DNA from: Candidatus Nomurabacteria bacterium
GTDB lineage: Bacteria; Patescibacteriota; Minisyncoccia; Phycocordibacterales; UBA9973
DNA: 63,154 nt
NCBI GenBank assembly: GCA_943354905.1
Contig: CALRDL010000003.1
Coordinates: forward strand, 1 to 63,154
Direction of reading: 5' to 3'
The notes beneath the pieces were generated by a model. It was not told the DNA's origin, searched no databases, and worked only from the letters and a program-made list of their open reading frames with translations. Every line of letters begins with the position of its first letter. The first letter of the stretch is position 1. The translations under genes and the position numbers were made by a program. Below are positions 23,591 through 41,251 of this stretch, piece after piece.

Positions 23591-23658
23591 GCTTATTTAT
23601 AAATATACCACAAAAAAACAAAAATGGACAATTTTTTAAAATATCTTATGATTACAAT

Positions 23659-23928
23659 ATGGAACAAGAACCAAAAAGAGAAGTTATAGAAAGGATAGAA
23701 AAGGCCGCTGTTAGAACTCCAGATGGTAAAATCTATGCTCGTCAGACACATGAAGACGTCTACGCTTGGAATCCACAAGCCAGCACTGAGGGTAGAGAAG
23801 AAGGATTTATCACAAACACTGGAAGGTTTATATCTAGAGAAAAAGCGGGAGAAATCGCTTTCAAAGCAGGACAAACAAAAGAAAGGAAAAACTCTTTAAC
23901 CAGTCCAGATATTTTTGATTTAAGATAA
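23659..23928 (+). CDS. Small hypothetical protein
   Basis: 89 aa with protein-like composition (VRTPDGKIYARQTHEDVY...GFITNTGRFISREKAGEIAFKAGQ). The overlapping minus-strand ORF is F/S/C-rich and less plausible. Confidence 0.5.
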   Translation: MEQEPKREVIERIEKAAVRTPDGKIYARQTHEDVYAWNPQASTEGREEGFITNTGRFISREKAGEIAFKAGQTKERKNSLTSPDIFDLR

Positions 23929-23930
23929 CT

Positions 23931-25325: not shown

Positions 25326-25338
25326 GTAACATATATTA

Positions 25339-27015
25339 CTACATTTTCTCCGGTGACTCTATTCCAAGAAGATGTAGGCCTTTTTTCATTACAAAAGTAA
25401 AAGCAAATGTAAGAGCCACAAAGTAACCAGAATTTTTATCTTCTTTATTTACTATGACATTGTTGCCATAAAAGCTATTGAAAGATCTTGCAATTTCGAT
25501 CAAATAATTTGCTATATAGTGGGGTTCATATTCACGTACTCCTCGTTCTACAACCTCCGGGAATCTATATAAAAGTTTTTCTATTTCAAATATTTCAGTA
25601 GAATCAGAATGTGGATCTGGTAAAATATTTTCCTTAGTTGCTCTCTCCAAGACTGACCTCGCTCGAGCATAAGAGTATTGTAAGTATGGACCAGAGTCAC
25701 CTTCGAAAGAAATCGAAGTTTCAAAATCATAAGCAATATCTCCCACAGTAGATTGTTTTAAAATGGAATATTTAATAGCTGAAACTCCGACTTGCTGTGA
25801 AATTTTCTTCTTGAAATCTTCATCCCAATCACGATCTTTCACTTTTTCGGAAACCAGAGCGATAGTGTCATTGATAAGCAATTCACCAGTCACAATATTT
25901 CCTTTTCGGGAACCCATTTTTCCAGTTGCAAAACGCATCATACCATGGGTTATGTGTTTCATCTTATCTGTGTATTCTGGATAGATAAGATAAATAGCTT
26001 TAGTGACGACACGCATATAGTCGAGTTGTTCATTTGCTGTGACAACAACAGAAAGATTCATATCGGGTTTTATTTTAAATTTTTCTACTGTAAGTCCTAG
26101 TTCTTTGGTCTCATAAGTCGGCAAGTCTTGTGAAGTTATAAAAACCCGAGTATGAAGTTTCGGCTGATTTTCTTTGTTATATTCTTCAGCTTTGAAAACT
26201 ATCGCCCCTTCTGATTCTTGAAATATTTTTTTATTTTCTTTAACTATCTCTAAACCAAAATCGGCAACTTTACTTTCTAAAAAATAATAGTCAAACTTTG
26301 TCCCCAGCAATTTATAAAAATCCTCAAATGCCTCCATAGTCACTTTGAATCCCCAGTCGTAGATAGAATTTATTTTGTCATCACTTCGATGATATATTTT
26401 TTTATTTATTTCATCGATTTCTTTCTTGGCTTCAGGATTATCTTCGTAAGCTCCTGCACCAAAGACATAGGCATTGCCTATGTTGCTCGCCTGCACATCG
26501 TGAGATCCTACTTGCTCTTGTAAATTTTCATTTTTCAAAAGTCCGTATATAGCTCTAGCCACATGAAGCCCGACATCACCTTGATAATTTGCCCTGAAAA
26601 CTTCTGCGCCAGAAACCTCTAAAATTCTAGCGACTGATTCACCGATAGTATTCGTCATTAGATGTCCGATGTGAAATGGCTTGAAAGGATTTGGGTCAGT
26701 ATATTCCACCATTATTTTCTTTCCAAGATATAAATTATTCTTTCCAAAATTCTTATTATTTAAAATCTCTTCAACACTCCCATGAAAAAATTTGGGTGAT
26801 AAATAGAAATTTATAAATCTTCCTGCCACTTCTATTTTTCCGATTTGTTCTCGCAAATCGCCCTGAGCTTGTCGAAGGGTCTCAGCATCTTTCTCTGCGT
26901 TTTCTGGAGACACAACAAAAGCGTAGTCGCCATTTTTTATATCTTTTGGATGCATCAAAACAACATCCTTGATATCTAAAATTTCCTTTATCCAATTTTT
27001 AATTTTATTTTGCAT
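25339..27015 (-). CDS. argS: Arginyl-tRNA synthetase
   Basis: DPNPFKPFHIGHLM (HIGH), a C-terminal anticodon-binding region and a terminal M. The start is taken at MQNKIKNW. Confidence 0.9.
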   Translation of the reverse strand: MQNKIKNWIKEILDIKDVVLMHPKDIKNGDYAFVVSPENAEKDAETLRQAQGDLREQIGKIEVAGRFINFYLSPKFFHGSVEEILNNKNFGKNNLYLGKKIMVEYTDPNPFKPFHIGHLMTNTIGESVARILEVSGAEVFRANYQGDVGLHVARAIYGLLKNENLQEQVGSHDVQASNIGNAYVFGAGAYEDNPEAKKEIDEINKKIYHRSDDKINSIYDWGFKVTMEAFEDFYKLLGTKFDYYFLESKVADFGLEIVKENKKIFQESEGAIVFKAEEYNKENQPKLHTRVFITSQDLPTYETKELGLTVEKFKIKPDMNLSVVVTANEQLDYMRVVTKAIYLIYPEYTDKMKHITHGMMRFATGKMGSRKGNIVTGELLINDTIALVSEKVKDRDWDEDFKKKISQQVGVSAIKYSILKQSTVGDIAYDFETSISFEGDSGPYLQYSYARARSVLERATKENILPDPHSDSTEIFEIEKLLYRFPEVVERGVREYEPHYIANYLIEIARSFNSFYGNNVIVNKEDKNSGYFVALTFAFTFVMKKGLHLLGIESPEKM

Positions 27016-27445
27016 TTGATTTAGAGCCAGTCGAACCAAACCCCCCTCGGCTACTAGAATCCATAGTATCAGTTTCTATCCATTCTGCAATTTCTATTTT
27101 TATAAAAACACCTTGTCCAAGTCTTTCACCTTTTTCAACTTTTACATCTTCATTTGTTAAATTATAAACTTGTAATAATATCTCATCTGTTTCTCCGCAA
27201 TAATCATTGTCTATATATCCAGTACTAACCAAAAGTCCTTTCTTTTTCAAAGTACTTGATCTGTCCTTGATTTCAAGCATATAGCCCTTTGGCGTAGCAA
27301 TGATGACATTTGTCGGCAAACGCTCCAAGGTTTTCGGAGGAATACTGACATCCACCCGAGAATATAAATCAAAAGCCACAGCTCCACTGGTCTGGTATTC
27401 TGGTAAAGGCAATGTCTTATCTATGCGTTTAATTTTTATTTTCAT
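27005..27445 (-). CDS. dut: dUTP diphosphatase
   Basis: GAVAFDLYS, GYIDNDYCGE and the C-terminal RGGFGSTG motif. Confidence 0.85.
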   Translation of the reverse strand: MKIKIKRIDKTLPLPEYQTSGAVAFDLYSRVDVSIPPKTLERLPTNVIIATPKGYMLEIKDRSSTLKKKGLLVSTGYIDNDYCGETDEILLQVYNLTNEDVKVEKGERLGQGVFIKIEIAEWIETDTMDSSSRGGFGSTGSKSNAK

Positions 27446-27446
27446 A

Positions 27447-27929
27447 TTATTTGAATAAATCGTAATATTTTTTAAAACCCGATACAAACATCTCGGGTTG
27501 TTCTTTTAAAAGTTTTTCTAGTTCATTTTTTGTGAACCATTTAATACTTTCAACTTCTTCGTCTTGTTTCTTGAATGGATAGTCGTGATCAATGCTGGCA
27601 ATAAACCATTGACCGAAAAATTCATGACTTGCCGACGCCCTAATTTTAGGACCTGCAATAGGTTTTAGTCCAATCAATCCTATTTCTTCTTCGGCTTCTT
27701 TTATTATATTTGATTCATAAGTCTCTCCTTCCTCTACCGTTCCCGCCGCAGAAGGTCCCCACAAACCAGGACTTTTTTTCTTACGAAATGACCTTTGAGC
27801 AAGCAAGACATTACCTTCTCTATCTTTCAACCAAAGACCAGTAATCCGTGAAATATCTTTTGGATTTTTTCCCTCTCGCTCTTTATATCCTATTATCTCA
27901 TCCTGCTCATTTACAATTGGAATTTTCAT
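27447..27929 (-). CDS. NUDIX hydrolase
   Basis: GTVEEGETYESNIIKEAEEEIGL Nudix box. Confidence 0.8.
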   Translation of the reverse strand: MKIPIVNEQDEIIGYKEREGKNPKDISRITGLWLKDREGNVLLAQRSFRKKKSPGLWGPSAAGTVEEGETYESNIIKEAEEEIGLIGLKPIAGPKIRASASHEFFGQWFIASIDHDYPFKKQDEEVESIKWFTKNELEKLLKEQPEMFVSGFKKYYDLFK

Positions 27930-27930
27930 A

Positions 27931-28623
27931 TTATTTTTTTAGAATTACCTTCACCTCCTCATAAATCTTTTCGTGAATATTTTCTCTTGTATCTATTTTA
28001 CCATTTTTAGTACAATCTATTTTAACCCAACCCTTTTGGGTCTTAGCCAACCAAAGTGCGCTTTTTATAGAATTTTTCTTAAACTCCACATCCGTCTCGT
28101 GAACATCTTTTTTATTCCCAGCATATGCACGCACAGATTTTTTATTCCTTTCTTTTAATAAAACTTCTACAAATTTTAATGGCAAAGATAAATACAAAAT
28201 TATATCTGGACGAGGAATTTTAAAAACTCCATATTCCATCTCATCCAGCCATTCCAAAAAACTTGCTCGTTTTTTTAAATTCTTGATTTTTCCTCCTTGA
28301 TGAATTTGATTCGCACTGACGTATCTATCGAGCACCACTACATAATCTTGGTCTAAATATTTCTTTATTTCTGCTGAAGATTCAAAGCGATCTGCGGCAT
28401 AAAGCACAGAAACTATTTTTGGATGTACTTTAATAAAATTATAATATTGTTCCGTTAAACAATGCCCGATAAATCCGCCAAAGAAATTTTCGTAGTGCGG
28501 AAAGTGAATATTTTTAACCTTTAAACCCTCTTTTTTAAGTCTTTCCGTTAACAGATCCATCTGCGTACTTTTCCCTGATCCATCCATCCCGTCTATAACT
28601 ATGAGTTTACCTTTTTTTACCAT
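27931..28623 (-). CDS. tmk: Thymidylate (dTMP) kinase
   Basis: IVIDGMDGSGKSTQ P-loop. Confidence 0.85.
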   Translation of the reverse strand: MVKKGKLIVIDGMDGSGKSTQMDLLTERLKKEGLKVKNIHFPHYENFFGGFIGHCLTEQYYNFIKVHPKIVSVLYAADRFESSAEIKKYLDQDYVVVLDRYVSANQIHQGGKIKNLKKRASFLEWLDEMEYGVFKIPRPDIILYLSLPLKFVEVLLKERNKKSVRAYAGNKKDVHETDVEFKKNSIKSALWLAKTQKGWVKIDCTKNGKIDTRENIHEKIYEEVKVILKK

Positions 28624-28635
28624 ATGAGAAATATA

Positions 28636-29046
28636 TCACAAAATGTACTTTTCAAAAACTTCTTTCGCGTATTGATCTATTCCTTCGTGAGTTTTTACTT
28701 CTTCCTTAGTGAGCCACTTAAAAGAACTATGGTCTTCGTCTAAGATAGGTTCACCTTCGATTTGCCCGACATAAGTCAGCCGGACGACATGTTTATCTGG
28801 TCGTAAAATATCTTGAGCAGCTAGCAATTTTGGCTCATCAATTAAGGTTAATTTTGTCTCTTCAAAAACTTCTCTTTTTAAATTTTCCAAAAGTGGAATT
28901 CCGATATCTATGCGCCCACCAACAATATCCCAAGAATTATCTTTCTTGACCTCGGGATATTTTTCCAGATTTCTATGTAATAATAAAAATTTCCCTTCTT
29001 TGTTTTGTAATAAAATCTTCACCCCGACTTGTAATTGTAATTCCAT
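28636..29046 (-). CDS. NUDIX hydrolase
   Basis: GGRIDIGIPLLENLKREVFEETKL Nudix box. Confidence 0.8.
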   Translation of the reverse strand: MELQLQVGVKILLQNKEGKFLLLHRNLEKYPEVKKDNSWDIVGGRIDIGIPLLENLKREVFEETKLTLIDEPKLLAAQDILRPDKHVVRLTYVGQIEGEPILDEDHSSFKWLTKEEVKTHEGIDQYAKEVFEKYIL

Positions 29047-29054
29047 AAAATTAT

Positions 29055-29333
29055 TTAGATAATTCTTTTATAAATTAATTTATAAGCAATAGAACGATGT
29101 CCTATTAATACAACAAAAACTTCATTCTTAGATTCGATAGAAAAAATTATTCTATAATCTCCCACTCTTAAACTTCTCAGTGGATACAAACTCCCATTTA
29201 AATATTTCCCAAAACGAACTGGATCTATGGTAATTTTTTCTTTAAGAATTTTTTGTATTCTTAAAGAATCATCTTTGGATAACTTTGGTATATCGACATC
29301 TACGACTTTCTGATGATAAGTTATCTTGTACAT
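29055..29333 (-). CDS. RelE/ParE-family type II toxin
   Basis: LRSLRVGDYRIIFSI...VFVVLIGHR signature; 92 aa. Confidence 0.75.
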   Translation of the reverse strand: MYKITYHQKVVDVDIPKLSKDDSLRIQKILKEKITIDPVRFGKYLNGSLYPLRSLRVGDYRIIFSIESKNEVFVVLIGHRSIAYKLIYKRII

Positions 29334-29336
29334 ATA

Positions 29337-29561
29337 TTACAGACCCCAAGCCTTTTCATGACTGATATATTTTGATTTTTCTTTATATCTAGTATCAGCT
29401 AACCTCGCCCAAACACTGTCTTCTTCTACCAAAAGAGCACTCTGTAGAAGCTCGGCTGCCTTGGTCGCTTCTGGGACATTATCACGCTTGGCTATTTTAG
29501 ACAAAGCCCAATCTAAGTCCGGAGAGAGAGTAATATTTAATCTTCTTTTTGTTGTTGCCAT
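29337..29561 (-). CDS. Ribbon-helix-helix antitoxin
   Basis: KRRLNITLSPDLDWALSKIAKRDNVP RHH N-terminus. Sits 3 nt upstream of the toxin. Confidence 0.7.
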   Translation of the reverse strand: MATTKRRLNITLSPDLDWALSKIAKRDNVPEATKAAELLQSALLVEEDSVWARLADTRYKEKSKYISHEKAWGL

Positions 29562-29567
29562 ATTTTA

Positions 29568-29587
29568 AGTGTATCAAAAGTGTATCA
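29568..29587. promoter_or_regulatory. Candidate RHH-antitoxin operator (direct repeat agtgtatca x2)
   Basis: agtgtatca at 29568-29576 and 29579-29587, located 7-26 nt upstream of the antitoxin start. Confidence 0.45.
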
Positions 29588-29683
29588 CCCATGTCAAGGA
29601 AAATTTATTTCCCCAATTCTTTTAATGCTTCCTCGGCGTAAAAGCGTACATTTGGGACTAGATCCATTGTATCAAGTTCTTCT

Positions 29684-30106
29684 TTATTTACCCATCAATT
29701 TTAATCCTGTTTCTTCATCATACTTTCTAGTAATTTTCTCTCCCAACCAATCCACTACTACTTCCCCTGTCGCTGAAATTATAAGCTGGTTTATGTGCCC
29801 ACCGAAAGTTTCATATTTTTCATTTGAAAAAATCCCATGCATATGAGGCAAAATTTCTTCTTCTAGAAAAGCAATATTGCCAGTCACCGAAACTATTTCT
29901 ATATGTTTTTGGTCAAAAACCTTACTTTGGTATTTTTTATTTTTCAAATCGTAATATGAAAGATCAACCATAGAGCAAGCTCCAATAATAGAAAAAGTAA
30001 AAGATTTGTCCCGTTTTTTGGCAAAAGTTTGCAAAACTTCAAAACAATCTTCACCTTTGTCCAGCCTTACGATACTTTTTTCTTTTGAGTCAAAGATAAT
30101 TTGCAT
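29684..30106 (-). CDS. PPC/DUF296 domain protein
   Basis: Pattern VRLDKGEDCFEVLQTFAKK...IIGACSMVDLSYYD...HMHGIF. Confidence 0.65.
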   Translation of the reverse strand: MQIIFDSKEKSIVRLDKGEDCFEVLQTFAKKRDKSFTFSIIGACSMVDLSYYDLKNKKYQSKVFDQKHIEIVSVTGNIAFLEEEILPHMHGIFSNEKYETFGGHINQLIISATGEVVVDWLGEKITRKYDEETGLKLMGK

Positions 30107-30111
30107 AATTT

Positions 30112-31356
30112 TTACACAAACTTCTTAGGTATCGGAAACTTTTTGGCTAATTTTATTATTTCTTTATGCACTACATCTTTTACTTTTTTATTATCTTTAT
30201 TTTTTAAAACTTTAATCATCAATTCTGCGACCATTTTACAATCTTTCTCTTTAAATCCACGAGTAGTAATCGCTGGTGTGCCAAAACGAATTCCCGAAGG
30301 GTCCATAGGACGCCTTGTATCATCTGCAATAGAATTCATATTTAATGTAATACCAACTTCATCGAGTACAGTTTGAGCTTCTTTGCCTGTGACTCCGAGA
30401 GAGCCGAATACATCTGCTAAGATAAGATGATTATCAGTGCCGCCGCCAATCATACGAATTTTTTCTTTATGGAAAACTTTTTCCATCGCTTTGGCATTTT
30501 TTAAAATTTGTTTTGCATAAGTTTTAAATTTTGGTGTCATTGCTTCACCAAAAGCTACGGCTTTGGCCGCGATAGTGTCCATATGCGGTCCACCTTGAAT
30601 ACCCGGGAAAATAGCTTTATCAATTTTCTTGGCAATATCTTCATTTTCTCGAGTCAAAATAAGTCCACCTCTTGGACCTCGCAATGTCTTGTGGGTAGTA
30701 GAAGTGATAATATCAAAACCATCGTCAAATGGATTACGAAGGACGCCGGCGGCAATGAGTCCAGCAATATGTGCCATATCTGCCATAGTGACTGCTCCCA
30801 CCTCGCGAGCAATCTCTACGAACTTTTTATAATCAAGGGTTCTAGAATAAGCCGAGAATCCAGCTAAAATTATTTTGGGTTTATGTTCCAGCGCCACACG
30901 GCGAAGATCTTCGTAATCTATCTCGCCTGTTTCTGGATCTTTCATCTTATAAGTAACAAATTTATAAATCTTGGCCGGTAAAGTCATCGGATGTCCGTGA
31001 GTCAAATGCCCTCCATGTGACAAATCCATACCGAGAACTGTATCTCCGGGTTCTAAAAGAGCAGCGTACACAGCCAGGTTTGCTGGCGCGCCAGAGTGTG
31101 GTTGTACATTCGCAAATTTACATTTGAAAAGTTTACAAGCACGCCCTATGGCGAGTGTCTCAATCTGATCTGTAAACTCTTGCCCACCGTAATATCTTCT
31201 GCCCGGGTACCCTTCGGAATATTTATTTGTAAACACCGAACCATTAGCTTTTAATACATCCTCGGAAACATAATTCTCGGAAGGAATAAGCTCCAAACCC
31301 TCTCTCTGCCTCTTCTCCTCGCCTTTTATTAAAGCTTCTACTTTTTTATCATACAT
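30112..31356 (-). CDS. glyA: Serine hydroxymethyltransferase
   Basis: LELIPSENY, VQPHSGAPAN and TSTTHKTLRGPRGG (PLP lysine) motifs. Confidence 0.95.
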   Translation of the reverse strand: MYDKKVEALIKGEEKRQREGLELIPSENYVSEDVLKANGSVFTNKYSEGYPGRRYYGGQEFTDQIETLAIGRACKLFKCKFANVQPHSGAPANLAVYAALLEPGDTVLGMDLSHGGHLTHGHPMTLPAKIYKFVTYKMKDPETGEIDYEDLRRVALEHKPKIILAGFSAYSRTLDYKKFVEIAREVGAVTMADMAHIAGLIAAGVLRNPFDDGFDIITSTTHKTLRGPRGGLILTRENEDIAKKIDKAIFPGIQGGPHMDTIAAKAVAFGEAMTPKFKTYAKQILKNAKAMEKVFHKEKIRMIGGGTDNHLILADVFGSLGVTGKEAQTVLDEVGITLNMNSIADDTRRPMDPSGIRFGTPAITTRGFKEKDCKMVAELMIKVLKNKDNKKVKDVVHKEIIKLAKKFPIPKKFV

Positions 31357-31371
31357 GGTTTTAGTATATCA

Positions 31372-32019
31372 TTATTTTAATTTTTGATTATTTTGTCTTT
31401 TAAAATTTTTATTTGAAACTACTGAACGCTTAAGTTGTTTTTCTAAATTTTTCCTAGCAACTCCTGCTACATTGCCACCTCTTTTTGCATCTTGTTTAAG
31501 TTTAACTACACCTTTGGAATTTTCATTTTTATGAATTTCAGTCGTTGATCTCTCGCCGAGCATATTAAATATCAATTCAAAATCATCCATATGATCTCGT
31601 AAATTTTCTCTTTTTAAACCTTTTAATTTATATAAAATTCTAGTGCGTTTTGTTGCCAACTCCGGATTTTCAATCTCTTGCACTCGCTCATAGCCAACTT
31701 TAGCAAGCCATCTTTTAAAAGGTTCAGCTTTAGATGATGGAATCGATTGTATAATACGAAATATACCTTCAGTGTCTGCGCAGTCAGTTTCTCGCATCTT
31801 GCCATCAGGGGCCAGCAATTTCAACTGTCGACAAATTGTCGACAGTTGAAACTCGTCTTCGCCTTTAACACGAACCTTGAGACGATACCAATAATCATTA
31901 GCATCAGCGCTATCAGTAAGTACTTCAATAACATCGACAACCGAAAACCACCATTCATTATTGAATAATGTTTTCCTTATTTTTTTACCCTTAAATAAAG
32001 CAATTTGCACTGTTTCCAT
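31372..32019 (-). CDS. Bro-N/antirepressor-like DNA-binding domain protein
   Basis: NNEWWFSVVDVIEVLTDS...KAEPFKRWLAKVGYERVQE resembles the Bro-N/DinD family. Confidence 0.6.
   Translation of the reverse strand: METVQIALFKGKKIRKTLFNNEWWFSVVDVIEVLTDSADANDYWYRLKVRVKGEDEFQLSTICRQLKLLAPDGKMRETDCADTEGIFRIIQSIPSSKAEPFKRWLAKVGYERVQEIENPELATKRTRILYKLKGLKRENLRDHMDDFELIFNMLGERSTTEIHKNENSKGVVKLKQDAKRGGNVAGVARKNLEKQLKRSVVSNKNFKRQNNQKLK
31819..31851. repeat. Perfect 33-nt palindrome inside the Bro-N gene
   Basis: tttcaactgtcgacaa-a-ttgtcgacagttgaaa. It has 16-bp arms and two GTCGAC sites, and encodes FQLSTICRQLKL. Confidence 0.95.
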
Positions 32020-32092
32020 ATTTAAAATATATCACAAAAACCAAGAAAAAAGAAAACTGTAGACGTCGGACGTCTCCAAGTAAGAAAGATCT

Positions 32093-32104
32093 CCCCCCCC
32101 CCCC
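32093..32104. repeat. C12 homopolymer in a divergent intergenic region
   Basis: 12 consecutive C, counted across the line break 32093-32104. The tract lies between the Bro-N start (32019) and the plus-strand membrane gene (32235). Confidence 0.95.
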
Positions 32105-32234
32105 AACCCTATGCGTAAGATTCGCTTTTGGATTTTTGGCGGTCGGCTAAAATGTGATAAAATTGACAATATCTGATATACTGAATCTACAAAGTCGAGA
32201 TGATAATGTATTTTATCAAAAATAATCACACTTT

Positions 32235-32723
32235 ATGGAAACAGACAAAAGACCTTTTTATATTTGGATAATGGTGCTACTTATAAACATTGGCACAGTG
32301 CTTTCTATTGTGTTAATAAACATTCCTGATTCAGGTTGGGGTAATTTTGGATGGTACACCTTATTAGAAGATCTGTCAATTAATTTGATTATTCTAGGTA
32401 TTTCTCTTTTTGTGTCAATCGTTTCAATCCTTATTGCTAAATCAAATAGTAGATTGAAGAATTACTTTGGATACGGCATTCCAGTTTTACTATTACTACC
32501 ACTTCCATATTTTATTCAGGATTACTTCATATGTACTGGTAAATTCTGCCAACTTGGTGCAATCATTTTCGGCTTTGGCTTTGGATTATCAGCAGTTATT
32601 TTTGCTATTTTCTACACCATAGGTATATACGCTAGAAAATTGAATATAAAATTTATTTTGTCTGTAATATGGATTGAAATAATTTTGTTTATAGGTTCTG
32701 CTTTATACTTTGGTTTGAATTAA
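32235..32723 (+). CDS. Polytopic membrane protein (hypothetical)
   Basis: 162 aa with about 5 hydrophobic helices. Confidence 0.6.
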   Translation: METDKRPFYIWIMVLLINIGTVLSIVLINIPDSGWGNFGWYTLLEDLSINLIILGISLFVSIVSILIAKSNSRLKNYFGYGIPVLLLLPLPYFIQDYFICTGKFCQLGAIIFGFGFGLSAVIFAIFYTIGIYARKLNIKFILSVIWIEIILFIGSALYFGLN

Positions 32724-32729
32724 AAATTA

Positions 32730-33398
32730 TCATTGGATATGATACCCAATAATTTCAAAATCATCTGGATTATTTACAGTTGCCCAAAATAAATAATCAG
32801 GTGTAATTATTTTTGGCACATTTTCAGCACTAATAATTTTTTCATCAAGTAATTGTTTGAAAATAAGGTCAGCACAAGTTGCTCTTTTATACCCTTGCTT
32901 TGGAAGTCCAAATATATAATCTGGATCTTCTGCTATATTTCTTAAGTTGATTTTTATAATATCTAATTTTGAAGAATAATTTTTAGGTCTAATGATAACG
33001 AAACTGTCTATATCATTATTGAACCAATCACTTTTTGATAATGTTACAAGTTGAATATCATCCTCGGGATTTTTTTCTGTACCAACAGCTTCCACGATCT
33101 GATCACTGCCTAAATAAAAAGCAGAGTGTGTAAAGTAAGGATTAACTAATTTATCAACAAGCCCTGTGCGTGAAGTGATATATCTGCGGATTAAAATATC
33201 ACCGGGCAATAATTTACAATCACTTATTTTTTTACATTGAAGCTTGGTGTCGACCAAAGAGCTAGAAATTTCATCTGACGATAATCGAAAAATACCATTG
33301 TAAAATAGATAACCTATGTAAAGACTATGTATAATGAAAAATGAAATACTTCCAATTATAACTATTAGTAATAATTTTAAAATAAATTTTTTAGACAT
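32730..33398 (-). CDS. Membrane-anchored protein, possibly a YiiX/permuted-papain (NlpC/P60-like) hydrolase
   Basis: N-terminal TM helix. The pattern LLPGDILIRR...THSAFYLG...EAVG...ATCADLIF resembles the permuted C92 family. The call is weak. Confidence 0.35.
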   Translation of the reverse strand: MSKKFILKLLLIVIIGSISFFIIHSLYIGYLFYNGIFRLSSDEISSSLVDTKLQCKKISDCKLLPGDILIRRYITSRTGLVDKLVNPYFTHSAFYLGSDQIVEAVGTEKNPEDDIQLVTLSKSDWFNNDIDSFVIIRPKNYSSKLDIIKINLRNIAEDPDYIFGLPKQGYKRATCADLIFKQLLDEKIISAENVPKIITPDYLFWATVNNPDDFEIIGYHIQ

Positions 33399-33461
33399 TT
33401 TCTATATTATAAATGAATTTATATAATTTCCAAAGGTTATATGAAAACGGAAGAAATGAGT

Positions 33462-34349
33462 TTATTTCTGAAAAATAAAACTTTCTTTTTTGCCATCAGA
33501 TTTCATAATAATCGTCCCCAACAGATCTGTGCGTAAAACTTTTACACCAAATTTAGCTAAAGTGTTTAGAGTTTCTCTGTGCGGATGACCGTATTTGTTG
33601 TCCTTGCCATTTGAAACGATGGCATAAGTAGGTGCCACGGCCTTAACAAAAGAATCCGAGGTAGAAGTTCGCGATCCATGATGCCCGACTTTTAAAATAG
33701 TGCTTTTTATTCCTGCAAGGTCTTGCCTAGCAGTTTTTTTATGATTATCTAAAATTATTTTCTCTGTTTTACTAGTCGAATCACCAGTGAGCATTATAGA
33801 AGTCTGTCCGTATGACAATTTAGCCACAATCGATCCATCATTTGTATCCCACGTAGAAACGTCTTGATCCGGAAACAAAATATCTATCACCGCTCCACCA
33901 CCGATATCTATTCTCATTCCCTTTTTTACTAAAATGTTTTGAATTTTTTTATTTTTTATTTCTGCCTCTAGATTTTTAGATACTTTCGAATCATTTATTG
34001 TACCCGGCTCAAAAACCATATCCACATTATAAGTTTTTAAAATATCATTAAACCCTCCAATATGGTCAGCGTCTGGATTAGTGATGACGATCGCATCTAT
34101 ATGCCTATCAAACGGAGACATGACTCGTGCAAGTCCACTCAAAATTTTTCTTGGTGGGCCAACATCGAACAATATTTGTGTACCAGTCGGAGACTCTATG
34201 AATAATGCGTCGCCCTGTCCGACATCTAGTATTGCGAAAATTAGATCTTTTTTTGAACTTTTAAAATCTAGGTAAAAAAGATAGGTTGTACTTACTAAAA
34301 GTAAGCAAGTAAAAATGAATAGGCCATAACTTTGTTTCCTTGGAATCAT
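33462..34349 (-). CDS. ComEC-type MBL-fold domain protein (stand-alone, TM-anchored)
   Basis: ILDVGQGDALFIESPTGTQILFDVG and VGHHGS motifs, as in the ComEC C-terminal beta-lactamase domain. Confidence 0.75.
   Translation of the reverse strand: MIPRKQSYGLFIFTCLLLVSTTYLFYLDFKSSKKDLIFAILDVGQGDALFIESPTGTQILFDVGPPRKILSGLARVMSPFDRHIDAIVITNPDADHIGGFNDILKTYNVDMVFEPGTINDSKVSKNLEAEIKNKKIQNILVKKGMRIDIGGGAVIDILFPDQDVSTWDTNDGSIVAKLSYGQTSIMLTGDSTSKTEKIILDNHKKTARQDLAGIKSTILKVGHHGSRTSTSDSFVKAVAPTYAIVSNGKDNKYGHPHRETLNTLAKFGVKVLRTDLLGTIIMKSDGKKESFIFQK
33713..33733. repeat. Family C hairpin inside the comEC-MBL gene
   Basis: ctgcaagg-tcttg-cctagcag (one mismatch). Encodes ARQDLAG. Confidence 0.6.
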
Positions 34350-34363
34350 GCTATAATAGTACC

Positions 34364-34975
34364 ATGAAAAAATTTGAAGAATTAAAATTTAACCTGCCTG
34401 CGCAGGCAGGTATTGTCAGTCTAAAAGGTATCTCGGCAAAAAACATAGAGGAACACCTCAAGCTTTATGCAGGGTATGTCACTCATAGCAATCTTGTGTT
34501 AGAAAAAATAGAAGAATTGTCTACTGATCCAGAAAAAAATATGCCCATTTTGAGCGGACTACAAAAAAGATTTGGGTTCGAATATAATGGTATGCGAAAT
34601 CATGAAGTTTATTTCTCCTCTCTTTCTGGAGAACCAAAGAATCTTTCTATTGAAAGCGAACTTAAAAAAAACATTTCGGAAGAATGGATTTCATTTGAAA
34701 AATGGTTAACATTATTTAAGACTATTGCGACGACTCGTGGTGTAGGCTGGGCAATGCTCTACTACGACAGAAAAGAAAAAAGACTACTCAATGCTTGGGT
34801 AGATGAGCAACATTTAGGTCAACTTCAAGATTGTACACTCATTTTAGCCTTAGATATGTGGGAACATGCGTATGTTTATGATTACTCTACTTCTGAAAAG
34901 AAAAAATATATAGAAGCATTTTTCGAAAATCTAAATTGGGAAATAGTTGAAGAGAATTTCAAGAAGGCTATCTAG
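34364..34975 (+). CDS. Fe/Mn superoxide dismutase family protein
   Basis: DMWEHAYVYDY signature and NHEVYF. The start is taken at MKKFEELKF, with TATAAT at 34352-34357. Confidence 0.7.
   Translation: MKKFEELKFNLPAQAGIVSLKGISAKNIEEHLKLYAGYVTHSNLVLEKIEELSTDPEKNMPILSGLQKRFGFEYNGMRNHEVYFSSLSGEPKNLSIESELKKNISEEWISFEKWLTLFKTIATTRGVGWAMLYYDRKEKRLLNAWVDEQHLGQLQDCTLILALDMWEHAYVYDYSTSEKKKYIEAFFENLNWEIVEENFKKAI
34393..34414. repeat. Family B palindromic element inside the SOD-like gene
   Basis: The 22-mer cctgcctgcgcaggcaggtatt is identical to 21656-21677. Encodes LPAQAGI. Confidence 0.9.
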
Positions 34976-36435
34976 GAATTTTGAATACTTCTCCAAAAAA
35001 GTATATAAAAAAAATATACATAAATTAGTATTACAAAAATAAGCGGAAAGTCTGGAAAAACAATAGAAGCAAAAGAAAGCTTGGAGAAGAAATCTATAAC
35101 TCCAAGTTCATAATGCAAAAATAAATACGAGATAAATCCCAGTGGCACAGAAAATCCATACCAAAATAGCCCAGCAAATCCAGTCAAAAATCCGAGAAGC
35201 ATTGTGAAAGGTATAAATGGCAAAATTAAAAAATTTGCGGGCAAAGCAACTAAAGAAAGATTCCCCATCTTATAAAGTATAAACGGAGTTACAAATACAT
35301 AAGCCGAGAAAGTAACCGAAGCTATCTCGCGAAGAGCAAAATTTTTAGGAACCCATAAGAAATATTTTTCAATTCTTGGAGTTAAAAATATCACCGCAAT
35401 AGTCGCTAGAAATGAAAGTTGGAAAGAAACATCAAAGACTAAGACGAAAGGATTTATTAAAATCATAAAAACCCCAGCGAGGACAAGAGCTCGTGCGACA
35501 TCATAATTTCGCCCTGTCGCGCGAGCGAAGAGTGTAAGAGTGGCCATGATTCCAGCACGTATCGCAGTCGAACCAAAACCAGTCATTAAAATAAAAAGCC
35601 AAACTAGAAAAATTCCAGCCCCAATACTAGCACTCAAAGAGAAAATTTTAGAGAAACTTAAAAATTTCATAAACCATTCAGCTACTATGGTAACGTTATA
35701 ACCCGAGAGAGCGACGATATGGATAGTCCCAGTATTTATAAAATTATTTCGAAGCTCAGAACTAAAAGCAGCCTTCTCTCCTAGGATGAGTCCACCCATG
35801 AGTAAATTTTCTGGATTCGCAATATTCAAATCAATATTTCGCAAAAATTTCTTTTTAAAAGAAAATAAAATACTTTTTACAAAATTCCCATTATCACGAG
35901 AAACAATTTCTGCAGTTACGTAATTCATGACGTAATATATTCCATCTTTGCGCAAATAGTTTATATAATCAAATTCTTTCCCTTGATCAGTTATGAAATT
36001 TTCTGGCTTTTGCAGAATACCCTTAAAATTTATTTCGTCACCGTATTTAAATTCTTCACCAAAAGGAACAGTGACTAAAATTTTCGTGGTGGAAGGAGCC
36101 ACCAACACTGTTAATTTCTGATTATTCTCCGTGATATCTGGCTGGTCCACAATCTCTCCAGATAAAGTTACTTTCCCTCCCACTTGTGATTCGAAAAATT
36201 CCGGATTTGGTTTATCAACCATATCAAATCTCAAAATACCAAGCGAAAAAAATAAAATAAGACATGAGATGATTAATCCCATTCCAAAATTCTTTACTAT
36301 ACAGAAAAACAAAATAACCAATAGAGCTACAACTCCAAACCAGATAACTAAATATAAATTTACAAAAACAAAAGACCGCAACAACACTCCAAAAATAAAT
36401 CCAAAACAAGATGAGTAAAATATTTTATCTTGCAT
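34972..36435 (-). CDS. comEC: ComEC/Rec2 competence channel (DUF4131 + Competence domains, without MBL)
   Basis: 487 aa and polytopic, with an OB-like segment (KVTLSGEIVDQP...LTVL) followed by multiple TM helices. Confidence 0.75.
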   Translation of the reverse strand: MQDKIFYSSCFGFIFGVLLRSFVFVNLYLVIWFGVVALLVILFFCIVKNFGMGLIISCLILFFSLGILRFDMVDKPNPEFFESQVGGKVTLSGEIVDQPDITENNQKLTVLVAPSTTKILVTVPFGEEFKYGDEINFKGILQKPENFITDQGKEFDYINYLRKDGIYYVMNYVTAEIVSRDNGNFVKSILFSFKKKFLRNIDLNIANPENLLMGGLILGEKAAFSSELRNNFINTGTIHIVALSGYNVTIVAEWFMKFLSFSKIFSLSASIGAGIFLVWLFILMTGFGSTAIRAGIMATLTLFARATGRNYDVARALVLAGVFMILINPFVLVFDVSFQLSFLATIAVIFLTPRIEKYFLWVPKNFALREIASVTFSAYVFVTPFILYKMGNLSLVALPANFLILPFIPFTMLLGFLTGFAGLFWYGFSVPLGFISYLFLHYELGVIDFFSKLSFASIVFPDFPLIFVILIYVYFFYILFWRSIQNS

Positions 36436-36454
36436 TTTTAATCAAAATTAAATT

Positions 36455-36967
36455 TTATTTCTTTAACTCCACTGGTTCGCCTTCTGCAAAACTTGTAGCG
36501 ATCACGTCGGCTCGTTCGTTCCACTCATGACCATTGTGTCCTTTGACATAAGTCCATTTTGGTTTTAATTCTTCTGTAAGTTTATACAATTCTTCCCAAA
36601 GTTCACGATTTACTACTGGCTTTTTGGCTGCATTTCGCCAATTATTTTTCTGCCAATTAAAAATCCATTCGGTGATTCCCAAAATCACATATTTGGAATC
36701 AGAGACTACTTCGATATCTTGCGTTAGGTCTTGCCTAACGCAATATTTCAAAGCTTCTATGGGTGCAGTTAGTTCCATCTGATTGTTAGTAGCATGCTCT
36801 TTACTACCACCTATTTCTATCACTTTCAACTTTTCACTTTCAACTTTCAACTTGTCATTATGGAACATAATAATCGCGCCCCAGCCAGCTTTCCCCGGGT
36901 TCCCCTTCGCCGCTCCGTCTGTATAAATTGTAATTTTTTCTTTAGTCATTTGATTTAGCGAAATCAT
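36455..36967 (-). CDS. rnhA: Ribonuclease HI
   Basis: IYTDGAAKGNPG, NNQMEL, SDSKYV and VKGHNGHEWNERAD motifs. Confidence 0.9.
   Translation of the reverse strand: MISLNQMTKEKITIYTDGAAKGNPGKAGWGAIIMFHNDKLKVESEKLKVIEIGGSKEHATNNQMELTAPIEALKYCVRQDLTQDIEVVSDSKYVILGITEWIFNWQKNNWRNAAKKPVVNRELWEELYKLTEELKPKWTYVKGHNGHEWNERADVIATSFAEGEPVELKK
36719..36743. repeat. Family C hairpin inside rnhA
   Basis: ttgcgttagg-tcttg-cctaacgcaa with a perfect 10-bp stem. Encodes CVRQDLTQ. Confidence 0.8.
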
Positions 36968-36997
36968 GCAGAGAAATCGTCAATTAAAGTATTGCTA

Positions 36998-38707
36998 TTA
37001 ATAAATATCCTCTATCCTCAATCTTAACTCTTCTTTCCCCCGAAACCTAGACAAGTCGAAAGTGGCTAGTAAATTTACGTTAATCCCTTCTTCTAGAACT
37101 TTACTAAAAGAATCCAGCCCAGAAAAAAAGGAAATCGCCACGACTTTTGTATTTGTATTTTCATCTCCCTCTTGATTTTTATTGGAAAAAATAATTTCCA
37201 AATGTTCGCCTGAACCATTCTTGCCGAACTTTTTTAATTTTTCTATTTTTACATTTTCAAAAAGAAATATCGGCTTGGGATTAGCAAGACCAAATGGTGT
37301 CATCTTTTCTATTTCTCGCCAATTTTTCATATTCACAGCGTTCAGAGTAAATTTTATATCAAAATTTACTCCCATCGTTCCTCCCCCTACATAGGGGGAG
37401 GTGCCGAAGGCGGAGGGGGTAAGTTTCTTAAATGAAAGTGATAAAGCCTCTTCCAAGAAATGCACTTTCTCAGTATGCACAGTGAAACCTCCGGCCAGCT
37501 CGTGCCCACCAAAATCCAAAAAGAATTCTTTCGTTTCTGTCATGAGTTCGACTATAGAGACAGATCCAGGCGAACGACAAGAACCCTTGATGCAATCATT
37601 TTCATCTTTTCCCCAAACAAAAACAGGCTTGTTGTATTCATCCATGATTTTTCCAGCTACAAGTCCGAGCACCCCAACTCTCCAATTCGGATTCCCGACG
37701 ACGATCACTTCATTCATTTCTCTCAAAGGACTATTGCTGAAAGTTTTTCCTACATCACGCATTATCCCCTTCACGATGTTTTTTCTTTCATCGTTTATTT
37801 TTGATAAATGGATAGCCAAATTATCACCCTCGACTTCATCAATGGTGGAAAGAAGTTCGAATGCTCGCATAGGGTCGTCCATTCGAGAAGCAGCGTTTAT
37901 GCGGGGTGTTAACATGAATCCAACATCATCTTCAGATAAATATTTTTGATCAATATTCATTTTAGCTAAAAGTTTTTGTAACCCCGGACGTGGAGATTTG
38001 CGTAAAACTTTCATCCCAAAATAGGCAATGGCTCTATTTTCCCCCGTAAGGGGGACCATATCTGAAAGAGTGGCCAATCCAGCCATATCGAGACTCCATT
38101 TTTCCCAACCATTAGTAATCTTAAAAAATTCACCATATTTTTTTACAAAACCTTGCACGAATTTGAACATGACTCCCGAACCACAAAGCATCTTCTCGGG
38201 ATAATCATCAACTTTAGGATTCAAAATAGCAAAAGCTCTCGGCAATGTCTCATGTGGTAAGTGATGATCTGTGATTATCACGTCTATGCCAGCAATTGAG
38301 GCTTCCGCTACTTCTTCTACTGCTGTGATACCCAGATCTATCGTAATAATAAGCTGGACTCCACTTTTTATAAATTTCCCAATTGCAATTAAGTTTAATC
38401 CATAACCTTCAGAGTTTCTTTGTGGGATATAAACTTCATAGTTTTTATAATTTATTTTTTTTAGTAAATCACTCAAGATCACTGCCCCTGGAATCCCGTC
38501 ACAATCATAGTCTGCATAAATAATTATCTTTTCATTATTGTCGATCGCTTGATAAAGTCGTACACAAGCACGTTCCATATCACGCATCAAAAAAGGATCG
38601 TGAAGATCCCGATCATAGTCTGGATTTAAAAAAGCGTTTATTTCTTGATCATTTTTAAGCCCGCATTTTAAAAGTAATTCTTTCAATAATTCTCCACTTT
38701 GGTGCAT
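36998..38707 (-). CDS. recJ: Single-stranded-DNA-specific exonuclease RecJ
   Basis: DHH motifs (IYADYDCDG, ITDHH), DHHA1 and GGHELAGG. The start is taken at MHQSGELL. Confidence 0.85.
   Translation of the reverse strand: MHQSGELLKELLLKCGLKNDQEINAFLNPDYDRDLHDPFLMRDMERACVRLYQAIDNNEKIIIYADYDCDGIPGAVILSDLLKKINYKNYEVYIPQRNSEGYGLNLIAIGKFIKSGVQLIITIDLGITAVEEVAEASIAGIDVIITDHHLPHETLPRAFAILNPKVDDYPEKMLCGSGVMFKFVQGFVKKYGEFFKITNGWEKWSLDMAGLATLSDMVPLTGENRAIAYFGMKVLRKSPRPGLQKLLAKMNIDQKYLSEDDVGFMLTPRINAASRMDDPMRAFELLSTIDEVEGDNLAIHLSKINDERKNIVKGIMRDVGKTFSNSPLREMNEVIVVGNPNWRVGVLGLVAGKIMDEYNKPVFVWGKDENDCIKGSCRSPGSVSIVELMTETKEFFLDFGGHELAGGFTVHTEKVHFLEEALSLSFKKLTPSAFGTSPYVGGGTMGVNFDIKFTLNAVNMKNWREIEKMTPFGLANPKPIFLFENVKIEKLKKFGKNGSGEHLEIIFSNKNQEGDENTNTKVVAISFFSGLDSFSKVLEEGINVNLLATFDLSRFRGKEELRLRIEDIY
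37380..37401. repeat. Family A palindrome inside recJ
   Basis: cctcccccta-ca-tagggggagg, followed by gccgaaggcgg/ggagggggt. Encodes SAFGTSPYVGGG. Confidence 0.85.
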
Positions 38708-38745
38708 AGCAACAATTTTAACATAATGTACTATAATATACTCAT

Positions 38746-39204
38746 ATGGAAGATTGCATTTTTTGCAAAATAGTAAAAGGAGAAGCTCCTTCTTATAAAA
38801 TTTGGGAAGATAAAGAACATTTAGCTTTTCTAACACCCTTCCCAAATACTGAAGGATTTAGTGTTGTAATAACAAAACAACATTATCCTAGCTATGCTTT
38901 TCATTTACCAGATAATATTTTGAAGAAATTAATTATTGCTTCTAAAAAAGTGGGGAAGCTCTTAGATTCCAAACTTGAAGATGTTGGAAGAACCGGAATG
39001 ATTTTCGAAGGTTTCGGCGTAGATCATGTACACGCAAAACTTTTCCCTATGCATGGAACCAAAAATAAAAAATGGAGACCCAGAAATTCTAATGTGAAAA
39101 AATATTTTAAAAAGTATGAAGGTTATATTTCATCTCACGATTATAAAAAAGAAAGTGATGAAAAACTAAAAAAGACGGCAAGAAAAATTGCCTCAAGGCT
39201 TTAA
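38746..39204 (+). CDS. HIT-family nucleotide hydrolase/transferase
   Basis: CIFCKIVKGE N-terminus and VDHVHAKLFP (the third His of HxHxH is replaced by K). Confidence 0.7.
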   Translation: MEDCIFCKIVKGEAPSYKIWEDKEHLAFLTPFPNTEGFSVVITKQHYPSYAFHLPDNILKKLIIASKKVGKLLDSKLEDVGRTGMIFEGFGVDHVHAKLFPMHGTKNKKWRPRNSNVKKYFKKYEGYISSHDYKKESDEKLKKTARKIASRL

Positions 39205-39225
39205 AGTGTTGTAAAAGTCGCCATT

Positions 39226-39258
39226 AGAAAACGACTAGGTCTTGCCTAGTCGTTTTCT
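39226..39258. terminator. Bidirectional hairpin between convergent hit and pgk (family C core)
   Basis: agaaaacgactagg-tcttg-cctagtcgttttct with a perfect 14-bp stem. It overlaps the last codons of pgk. Confidence 0.7.
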
Positions 39259-40472
39259 AAAAGTGGTATAAGTGCAGGCAAAGTTTTTCCTGCCAAAAAT
39301 TCTAGTGTCGCTCCTCCAGCTAGACTAATGTATGAATAATCTTCTAGATTTGTATATTTACGTGCAACATTTATAGTATCTCCACCAGCTAATATGGTTT
39401 TTCCCGTATGATTTTTAGTAATATCCATCATTGCTTCCAAAATAAACTTAGAACCTTCCCTAAATTTTTCATTTTCAAACTTACCCATTGGGCCACTCAA
39501 AAAAACTGTTTTTGAACTTCTAATAATTTCTGAAAAAGTTTCTCTAGTCTTCGGGCCAATATCAAAAGCACCCCAGTCATTTGGTATACTTTCTGTATTA
39601 ATGTCTAAAATTCTACTCGAAATCCCATCTGAAATCACAACATCAGACGGATATACAATTTTTTCTTTATATTTTTCTAAAATTTCCTTAGCATAAACTA
39701 TCCAATCCTTTTTTTCACGCCTTTTTTCATCTACAAAAACATCTTCCATAAAAGAAATACCGAGTTCTACTCCTTCGGCCTTTAAAAATACATTAGCTAC
39801 AGCTCCACCGACTAAAACTTTGTCAGCTATTTTTAACAAATTATTTACAGAATCCACCTTATCAGAAATCTTCGCCCCTCCGATTAAAACAGTAAAGGGT
39901 CGTGCTGGATTTTCTAAAAGATTTGTCAGCATCTCTACTTCTTGCCTTAAATAAAGACCTGCAACCGAAGGTAGGTGCCTCTCGATTCCAGTTGTTGAGG
40001 AATGGACTCTGTGTGCCTGAGGAAAACCGTCAAAAACTAAAATATCTTTTCCTAAACAAAGTTTTTTTGCAAATTCATCATCGTCTATCATCTCTTCTTT
40101 GTAAAATCTAACGTTTTCGAGCATTAAAATATCACCGTTTTTCATTTCAGAGATTTTTTCTTCCACTAGTGGACCAATACAATCATCTATTTTTGAAACT
40201 GGATGCCCTAAAAGTTCAGCTAGTCTTTCGGCGTGCGGATTTGTGCGAAGTTTTTCTATCACCACCCCATCTGGTCGACCCACATATGTGAGAATTACAA
40301 TTTTGCAATTTTCTTTTAGTAAATATTCCAAAGTCGCTAAAGTCATTTTGATTCTCATGTCATCTGACAGCTCTAGTATGCCATCAATATCCCTTACTTC
40401 AATATCATACGGTGCTCGATAAAGAATAGTTTTTTCTTTTAGATTAATATCTTCAAGTTTTTTTAGTTTCAT
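39246..40472 (-). CDS. pgk: Phosphoglycerate kinase
   Basis: 408 aa with LENVRFYKEE, GGAKISDK and GGGATLEF motifs. Confidence 0.9.
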   Translation of the reverse strand: MKLKKLEDINLKEKTILYRAPYDIEVRDIDGILELSDDMRIKMTLATLEYLLKENCKIVILTYVGRPDGVVIEKLRTNPHAERLAELLGHPVSKIDDCIGPLVEEKISEMKNGDILMLENVRFYKEEMIDDDEFAKKLCLGKDILVFDGFPQAHRVHSSTTGIERHLPSVAGLYLRQEVEMLTNLLENPARPFTVLIGGAKISDKVDSVNNLLKIADKVLVGGAVANVFLKAEGVELGISFMEDVFVDEKRREKKDWIVYAKEILEKYKEKIVYPSDVVISDGISSRILDINTESIPNDWGAFDIGPKTRETFSEIIRSSKTVFLSGPMGKFENEKFREGSKFILEAMMDITKNHTGKTILAGGDTINVARKYTNLEDYSYISLAGGATLEFLAGKTLPALIPLLEND

Positions 40473-41251
40473 AAATTCTCTGCTATTTTTACTATCCCCC
40501 CAAATTTTTTAGCATCCAAACTCACCTGACCAGGAAGCAAACCGTCCACTCCACCATTTGTTAAAAATTCTCCGGCGTTTCGCTCTGTTACCGACCCACC
40601 ATAGATAATCCTCGGTAGTTCTGTCTTAACTCCAAATTTATCAGAAAGTATTTTTTTTATAAAGATAGCCATCTCGAGACAGTCCGCAGGAGTCGCATCT
40701 TTTCTATTCACAGTCGAAGACAGAGCCCAGACAGGTTCATAGGCAATAATTATTTTTGAAATTAAATTTTTAGAAATCCCATCCAAGCAAATTTCGATTT
40801 GTTCTTTGACCACATTAAAATACGAATGATTTCCATCTCTCTCATTTTCTCCGACACAAAAAACTGGTACAAGACCTGAGGCAAGGGCGGATTTTATTTT
40901 TTTATTTATACTGTTATTATTTTCCCCAAGAGTTCGCCTTTCAGAATGACCCAAAATCACATATTTAACCCCAATATTAGCGAGCATTTCTGGAGAAATT
41001 TCTCCCGTAAAAGGACCGACGTCGCCAACGAAAGCATCTTGAGCGCCAAGAGATACTTTCTGATTAGATCTAGATAATTTTTTTATATTTTCTAAATATA
41101 TAAATGGAGGACAAACTATAATTTCTGTTTTTTTATTCCCTAAAAGTTCCTTCATTATATTTCTGAAGAGCTTCTCCGCGTCTTTTAAAGTTATTGGATT
41201 CATTTTCCAGTTCCCGATAATTATTTTTTTTACTCTATTCCTTGTTTGCAT
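40469..41251 (-). CDS. tpiA: Triose-phosphate isomerase
   Basis: GNWKMN, ILGHSERR, AYEPVWA and GGS motifs. Confidence 0.9.
   Translation of the reverse strand: MQTRNRVKKIIIGNWKMNPITLKDAEKLFRNIMKELLGNKKTEIIVCPPFIYLENIKKLSRSNQKVSLGAQDAFVGDVGPFTGEISPEMLANIGVKYVILGHSERRTLGENNNSINKKIKSALASGLVPVFCVGENERDGNHSYFNVVKEQIEICLDGISKNLISKIIIAYEPVWALSSTVNRKDATPADCLEMAIFIKKILSDKFGVKTELPRIIYGGSVTERNAGEFLTNGGVDGLLPGQVSLDAKKFGGIVKIAENL

Follow-up and report, generated by a model that had tools for sequence, protein, structure and literature searches.

Hairpins with a fixed 11-nucleotide apex in a genus of Patescibacteria: probable REP-type repeats tied to a RAYT-like transposase subfamily

The window analyzed here is a stretch of 63,154 nucleotides from a Candidatus Nomurabacteria genome, in which it is contig C3 (genome G000; 750,840 bp, 36% G+C, 31 contigs). 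An 11-nucleotide motif, AGGTCTTGCCT, occurs five times in the window against 0.02 copies expected, and none of 100 dinucleotide-preserving shuffles reaches five. All five sites listed in the initial annotation were found, at 785-795 on the minus strand and at 23517-23527, 33718-33728, 36726-36736 and 39237-39247 on the plus strand; its positions 785, 36726 and 39237 were exact, and two others were off by one (23518 for 23517, and 33719 for 33718). The motif is a mini-hairpin, AGG-TCTTG-CCT, which forms the apex of a larger hairpin whose stem is usually extended by complementary arms. We refer to the motif as the core and to the hairpins as family C.

The copy at 39224-39260 (+, core 39237-39247) belongs to the CGACT stem type and lies between two convergent genes, a HIT gene (38746-39204, +) and pgk (39246-40472, -). 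Its stem, described earlier as perfect over 14 bp, is indeed perfect, but those 14 bp are the inner part of 16. One hairpin arm supplies the last codons of pgk, E-N-D, and its TAG stop. This hairpin was absent from the pgk 3' end in all 24 relatives examined.

The second copy, of the GCGTT stem type, lies at 36716-36746 (+, core 36726-36736) inside rnhA (36455-36967, -), and its annotated perfect 10-bp stem was confirmed at 36719-36743. It is antisense and in frame, is translated as C-V-R-Q-D-L-T-Q, and brings zero net length change relative to the rnhA genes of relatives. The same protein loop, near residues 76-86, carries differing hairpins or palindromes in at least eight species of the genus including this one, some of those in other species having AGG-loop-CCT apices; in one (G011) it holds an 18-nt palindrome of another family, A. 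The occurrence of different palindromes in one loop in several species marks the loop as an insertion hot spot.

A third copy, with an imperfect stem of 3 bp, an A/A mismatch and 4 bp, is located at 33713-33733 (+, core 33718-33728), antisense and in frame within a gene for a metallo-beta-lactamase-fold protein (33462-34349, -). It reads T-A-R-Q-D-L-A-G, of which six codons, A-R-Q-D-L-A, are added relative to 16 orthologues of the genus that lack them. The RQDL-like peptides that had been ascribed to all three copies overlapping open reading frames are thus encoded at 33718 and 36726, but not at 39237, where the core itself is untranslated.

The fourth copy, at 23511-23532 (+, core 23517-23527), is a decayed hairpin of the CGACT type that has lost one T, with a stem of 5 bp, a one-base bulge and 3 bp. 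It is found inside a T-box-like leader (23447-23598, -) of ileS (19797-23432, -). The assignment of this leader as a T-box, made in the initial annotation, agrees with a full-length match to RF00230 that is weak (35.9 bits against a gathering score of 93, E 1e-6), and in the RF00230 alignment the hairpin appears as an insertion. At gathering thresholds Rfam gave no match within the window, the hairpin included, and ARAGORN predicted no tRNA within the window. The IleRS encoded downstream carries an inserted histidine-phosphatase domain. Finally, the site at 785-795 (-) is a lone 11-mer located 15 nt upstream of the GTG of an open reading frame at 63-770 (-); its flanks are not complementary, there is no stem past AGG/CCT, and it is either a decayed copy or a chance match.

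The window stretch was present in four lake-water metagenome runs from two studies, with no RNA run among them. Metagenome contigs covering window positions 22000-41000 had no indel at any hairpin, a result that does not address mobility since such contigs drop rare variants.

In the whole genome, the core occurs 33 times exactly and 50 times with at most one mismatch, while the reversed control pattern is absent, and the genome-wide enrichment of the motif is therefore real. The counts include a few false positives, since Walker-A codons (ACA GGC AAG ACC TTG, T-G-K-T-L) yield the 11-mer by coincidence at C2:25335 and C19:10183. Two further copies, that at 785 among them, have no stem. With these four set aside, about 29 of the 33 cores stand in a hairpin or in a doublet, the latter formed by two inverted cores that make up the stem, with a 10-12-nt spacer between them. 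GCGTT..AACGC arms are present in 14 copies and CGACT..AGTCG arms in about five. In two places, both near contig ends (C1:1-330 and C23:8350-8480), a tRNA gene is followed by a family C hairpin, and the left half of the one on C1 is tandemly duplicated over 17 nt.

The stems were examined over all 148 distinct 35-nt contexts of the core or its C-variant, taken from this genome and about 45 relatives without selection for pairing and scored over a 13-bp helix. Pairs are formed in 73.4% of the cells, compared with 55.6% in shuffled sets (0 of 500 reached the observed value) and 34-49% when the partner was slid. Changes on both sides were seen in 485 cells against 235, and the covariation score was 0.458 against 0.165; the five pairs adjoining the core each use five or six pair types. 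Conservation in the alignment is limited to the 11 apex positions and the outer columns vary, with 37 different 6-nt arms among the 86 copies that have at least three complementary bp beyond AGG/CCT. The proposal that a fixed apex is carried on compensating stems is therefore borne out across these contexts. In the window, stems are complementary at four of the five sites (two of them imperfectly) but missing at 785, and what had been taken for independent compensation at each site is mostly the presence of two sub-families, GCGTT and CGACT, true compensation being found between species.

Outside this genome, the exact core is present in 22 of 24 other genomes of the genus, at 0-21 copies per genome, so that the range within the genus is 0-33. 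Sixteen other families of the order have 0-2 copies, and controls gave values close to zero. The arms change between species around a constant core: CTACAG and CCCCAT in G017, ATTGCT in G007, TGTGCT and ACTTGG in G003, and several types in G005. Duplications of half a hairpin, which give a "one and a half" structure, are common. They point to no single nick site, as their breakpoints fall at varying points inside the core, of which a prefix (3, 4, 5 or 8 nt) or a suffix (3, 5 or 6 nt) is retained.

About half of the copies in G000 lie inside genes. In housekeeping genes, 11 single copies and two doublets are in frame; besides the genes described above, the hosts encode RuvB, RuvA, KsgA, a DsbD-like protein, LeuRS, RsmI, LigA, MnmA, TsaD, Tgt and an RlmI-like methyltransferase. 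In ruvB, five codons are present that 24 of 29 relatives do not have. By comparison of orthologous sequences, the copies in ruvB, in the metallo-beta-lactamase-fold gene and at the end of pgk appear as lineage-specific insertions. Relative to the core as written, each of the 11 single in-gene copies is antisense, with the reading V/A-R-Q-D/G-L-T/A. Five in-gene copies were checked in G003, G005 and G007 and all had this orientation too; four read R-Q-D-L and one, in G003, used another frame. GCGTT or CT..AG arms bring TAG or TAA into four of the six frames, and an open sense frame, R-S-C-L, is never used; the antisense bias of genic copies thus exceeds what stop avoidance accounts for.

Two genes of this class have further features. 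The LeuRS gene (C12:19612-22614) encodes a NUDIX domain inserted between the editing and catalytic parts of the enzyme. On C4, outside the window at about 25100-25150, a third genic doublet of family C, an imperfect one, lies in frame in a gene for an M1 aminopeptidase (pepN-like); it brings an in-frame TAG, and the reading frame is unchanged downstream. This gene is split, dead or dependent on read-through. Translational bypass of the TAG was considered and rejected, because the sole matching landing codon leads into a closed frame.

The initial annotation had suggested a search for a protein partner such as an HUH transposase, and genes of this kind were found next to family C hairpins in related genomes. 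In G003 and G007, three RAYT-like genes have family C hairpins on both flanks. In 101 genomes of the genus, one of which is unpublished (G076) and carries no specific claim made here, we surveyed the loci of the 30 closest homologues of the G007 protein. These come from about 28 species and are 58-100% identical to it, and all 30 RAYT-like Y1/HUH genes have one or two such hairpins. The ATG is preceded by an AGG-N5-CCT hairpin in 30 of 30 loci, at a distance of 28-30 nt in most and within 19-42 nt throughout; between the two lies a TATAAT-like box, about 10-14 nt before the ATG. The 5' hairpin occupies the -35 position of this box. This arrangement suggests a very short leader and possible autoregulation through binding of the enzyme to its own hairpin. 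Of the 30 loci, 28 also have a 3' hairpin, at or over the stop codon, its loop inverted relative to the 5' one in 24 and in the same sense in four.

The two ends of a locus match each other. The core variant is identical at both, being AGGTCTTGCCT (T-type) at 18 loci, AGGCCTTGCCT (C-type) at 11 and AGGTCCGACCT at one. The arms likewise agree at each locus and vary from one species to the next. Dispersed solo copies have the stem seen in the hairpins that flank the transposase gene of their genome, and both stem types of G000 recur at intact loci of relatives, the GCGTT arms in G108 and the CGACT arms in G044 and G073. Genomes with a T-type cognate gene have 5-21 exact cores. In sister loci the loop may be flipped at one position; because TCTTG and CAAGA differ at all five bases, these flips must be inversions or re-insertions and not point mutations. 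Core type clusters on the protein tree (0 of 500 shuffles), and the T- and C-types switch several times; together with one RAYT-like gene of G003 that comes from another clade and has the same flanking core, these switches indicate that the specificity of enzyme for core is loose.

In G000 the cognate gene is a truncated fragment (C15:13039-13344), 80% identical to residues 116-217 of the G108 protein. The fragment is missing the HUH region, and an intact GCGTT hairpin marks its end. Its locus and divergent neighboring gene are those of the intact unit in G007 and three other species; the same neighboring gene in at least five genomes suggests vertical descent at one locus. Just beyond the fragment, at C15:13350-13876, two GCGTT hairpins of the same orientation enclose an open reading frame for a predicted membrane protein of 91 aa; this is the locus of the intact unit in G007, and the truncated gene lies just outside it, reading towards the hairpin. 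No intact cognate gene was found in the assemblies of G000 (33 copies) or G017 (19 copies, 99% complete), so a high copy number does not require a transposase at present.

These findings bear on the view, taken in the initial annotation, that selection acts on an RNA hairpin with a fixed UCUUG/CAAGA loop. In a broader form, the hairpins would be RNA elements, i.e., terminators, stabilizing 3' hairpins or processing sites under host selection, and the link to transposases would be secondary. Several intergenic copies do lie 15-50 nt past a stop codon or between convergent genes, doublets occur between genes of the atp operon, and in G017 all 13 copies in two accessory-gene clusters are oriented with the flanking genes; genic copies all have the opposite sense, as if the sense form were harmful in a message. 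E. coli REPs, moreover, are known to affect mRNA stability and termination. However, most copies have no U-run behind them. T-runs do occur at 39237 and at C5:16245, as part of the stem, and the sequence behind most GCGTT copies is A-rich or mixed. The orthologous gene ends of relatives lack the hairpin and copy number varies from 0 to 33 within one genus, the loop flips at a fixed position between sister loci, and stems are common within a genome and match those of the transposase-flanking copies. Copies in frame within coding sequence, a copy within a T-box leader and the lack of an Rfam match also speak against this reading. Some copies, e.g., the sense-oriented intergenic ones, may have an RNA side-effect, but an RNA role leaves the transposase link, the insertion polymorphism and the flips unexplained. 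Selection on RNA structure as the origin of the family is not supported by these data, and the RNA reading as a whole appears quite improbable.

The insertion pattern, the range of copy number, the loop flips and the stems shared with transposase-flanking copies are instead the behavior of REP-type DNA repeats. We conclude that family C hairpins are most probably short palindromic DNA repeats of the REP type, tied to one RAYT-like subfamily of the genus. They are best read as an unusual variant of REP-RAYT systems, a DNA repeat rather than a new regulatory RNA.

The proteins of this subfamily belong to a larger set. A Pfam Y1_Tnp search of G000 identified nine open reading frames, about 225-240 aa long, of which six exceed the cut-off. 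They are 31-54% identical to the query, include no near-identical pair, and in none of the nine cases are they flanked by family C hairpins. Four or more have a different hairpin family on both sides or upstream; the gene on C7, for instance, has CCACAAGTC(C/G)GACTTGTGG on either side with the loop inverted. The hairpin families flanking the paralogues first showed as over-represented k-mers. One paralogue, a protein of 223 aa encoded at 62322-62993 (+), is located in the window; it is not the family C cognate, but it shows that the window, too, encodes a system of this kind. It matches Y1_Tnp with 38.8 bits, over the cut-off, and NCBIfam REP_Tyr_transpos with 47.7 bits, below the cut-off. Directly upstream, at 62258-62316 (+), are two hairpins with the apex GTGAAAC and the stem ATCAAG..CTTGAT, a family with about eight copies in the genome.

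Within an alignment of 36 sequences, H81 and H83 of the HUH motif and Y141 are invariant. REP_Tyr_transpos (NF047646) was the sole meaningful NCBIfam match, at 29-48 bits, which does not reach the 80-bit threshold. A PDB sequence search with a RAYT-like protein gave no match, and a fold search with its AlphaFold model (pLDDT 87.8) ranked 4ER8, the structure of E. coli RAYT in complex with a REP hairpin, first (E 1.5e-6) and the TnpA structures of IS608 and ISDra2 next. The proteins are distant relatives of curated RAYTs. RAYT-like open reading frames, mostly of about 220-260 aa, are present in 78 of 101 genomes of the genus, with up to 13 per genome, and Y1_Tnp matches occur in 120 of 201 genomes sampled across the class.

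A Y1 transposase fold with its motifs, between two hairpins, could also be a true insertion sequence of the IS200/IS605 type that moves as a whole, the solo hairpins being PATE- or MITE-like derivatives or leftovers of deletion. IS200/IS605 elements and their miniature PATE derivatives share with our system the transposase fold, the HUH and Tyr motifs, hairpins at both gene ends and small non-autonomous hairpins. The same orientation of the two hairpins in 4 of 28 units, as at IS200/IS605 ends, would fit such an element, as would the different gene neighborhoods of the unit in different species, the up to 13 paralogues per genome and the truncated copy in G000, which resembles a decaying insertion sequence. 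Yet identity to the query is only 31-54% among the paralogues of one genome, each of which has its own hairpin, so that multiple identical gene units are lacking; the hairpins are inverted in 24 of 28 units, as in a REPtron; and at least five genomes share the neighboring gene. No conserved target tetranucleotide was found, the proteins (about 220 aa) carry a C-terminal extension and exceed those of IS200/IS605 elements by about 70 aa, and 4ER8 ranks ahead of the IS608 and ISDra2 TnpA structures. We regard an insertion sequence moving whole as unlikely.

The resemblance to REP-RAYT systems is more detailed. In published systems, every RAYT is paired with a separate REP family, and REPs lie on the flanks of RAYT genes (PMC3116915; PMC6006769; 10.1101/2021.07.10.451892). 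As in the REP/REPIN-RAYT system or REPtron, which includes E. coli TnpA-REP (RayT/YafM, 4ER8) with its REP/BIME repeats and the Pseudomonas REPINs, a Y1/HUH gene is bracketed by its own palindromes, mostly inverted; the bracketing palindrome is also dispersed genome-wide, and every paralogue has a palindrome family of its own; inheritance of the genes is for the most part at one fixed locus; and REPIN-like doublets occur alongside singlets. There are also differences. Family C conserves an 11-nt apex and, in the 148-copy alignment, lacks the 5' GTAG/CGTC foot; its units are very short (21-37 nt); up to 13 paralogues are present in genomes of 0.5-0.9 Mb; and the proteins remain under the NCBIfam RAYT cut-off. 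Whereas REPINs are almost exclusively extragenic (10.1101/2021.07.10.451892), about half of the family C copies are genic, in frame and in one orientation. Patescibacteria are not mentioned in the papers on RAYT classification and REPINs (PMC6006769; PMC3116915; 10.1101/2021.07.10.451892), and a literature search found no relevant paper on in-frame palindromic repeats or RAYT/REPIN in Patescibacteria/CPR.

The adjacency of gene and hairpin and the homology to E. coli TnpA-REP lead us to infer that the protein may bind, cut or move the hairpin. Under the REP-type reading, the enzyme would recognize a single-stranded DNA hairpin by its invariant apex, and the stem would need only to pair, which would account for stems that covary freely around a constant apex. 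This protein might nick in or near the apex and copy or re-join hairpins elsewhere, and in-gene copies would survive only in an orientation and frame that avoid the TAG or TAA of the stem and encode a hydrophilic loop, V-R-Q-D-L-T. Since the cognate gene in G000 is a truncated remnant, the about 29 copies in this genome have probably ceased to move, unless they are served by a paralogue or by a gene missing from the assembly.

Several observations count against the REP-type reading. The rnhA copy, which causes no net length change, is not explained by simple insertion, and genic copies are strictly antisense beyond the avoidance of stop codons; in addition, half-hairpin breakpoints are variable, T- and C-cores switch, and high copy numbers are reached without an intact cognate gene. 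Zero length change in rnhA, the loop flips and the half-hairpin duplications would fit template switching during replication. The repeats could thus have been spread by an enzyme-free process of this kind, or by a different enzyme, for example a homing-type nuclease (GIY-YIG or DUF559), with RAYT genes serving as landing sites. Such an origin seems very improbable to us, as the 5' hairpin has a nearly fixed position, 28-30 nt before the ATG in most of 30 loci, core and stem agree at both ends in all 28 loci that have both, and no other nuclease gene was found beside family C copies in the loci read.

We give a low probability to a more far-reaching version of the REP-type reading. RAYT-like enzymes might read the apex rather than a 5' foot and "write" only the hairpin, nicking the loop and copying, overwriting or inverting palindromes in place, with up to 13 enzyme-hairpin pairs per genome. 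Writing in place would explain insertions of zero length change, loop flips at sister loci and half-hairpin duplications. If this were true, Patescibacteria would have a standing system that remodels gene ends and the surface loops of essential proteins, and it might also be kept since sense-oriented hairpins serve as transcript-end signals.

REP-RAYT systems as described consist of single-copy domesticated transposases and extragenic repeats, mainly in Proteobacteria. Here, a RAYT-like enzyme has radiated into many paralogues with their own tiny hairpins, in genomes of 0.5-0.9 Mb with about 90% coding density, and hairpins are tolerated in frame in essential genes (RuvA, RuvB, LigA, LeuRS, RnhA, Tgt, TsaD and others). 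The RAYT-like subfamily provides a concrete and testable partner for the hairpins with conserved loop and variable stem in Patescibacteria, and the fixed apex, if it is recognized as proposed, is an unusually clean recognition element for studies of DNA choice by Y1 HUH enzymes. A practical caution is that these hairpins imitate covarying RNA structures and that they inflate or split the gene calls of candidate-phyla genomes.

In-frame palindromes are known from Rickettsia palindromic elements (RPEs), which lie in housekeeping genes of a small-genome bacterium and are translated as extra surface loops. Unlike family C units, which measure 21-37 nt and are linked to a RAYT-like gene, RPEs span about 100-150 bp and have no known associated transposase. 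In yeast mitochondria, mobile GC clusters are likewise short G+C-rich hairpins, sometimes genic, in a compact A+T-rich genome; this is a resemblance only, the genetic system being unrelated and having no HUH enzyme.

Three other explanations were considered and rejected. A DNA-uptake signal was suggested by the adjoining comEC and by inverted pairs as in Neisseria, but the density is only about one per 23 kb and the motif is tied to RAYT. Integron attC sites were sought as R'' (RYYYAAC) and R' (GTTRRRY) boxes at the hairpin base; GCGTT copies hold GTTAGGT and GCCTAAC in the wrong order, and the stems of other species are unrelated. Replication-strand bias does not account for the orientation of both kinds of copy, as genic copies are antisense and the G017 intergenic clusters sense, with opposite signs. 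No integrase was seen within the stretches read of these G017 clusters. At C1:391-396 kb and C2:126-130 kb of that genome, sense family C hairpins separate small accessory genes, which gives the look of a cassette array; the genes encode a NUDIX protein, a serine hydrolase, TspO, a HAD protein and a protein with a T9SS tail.
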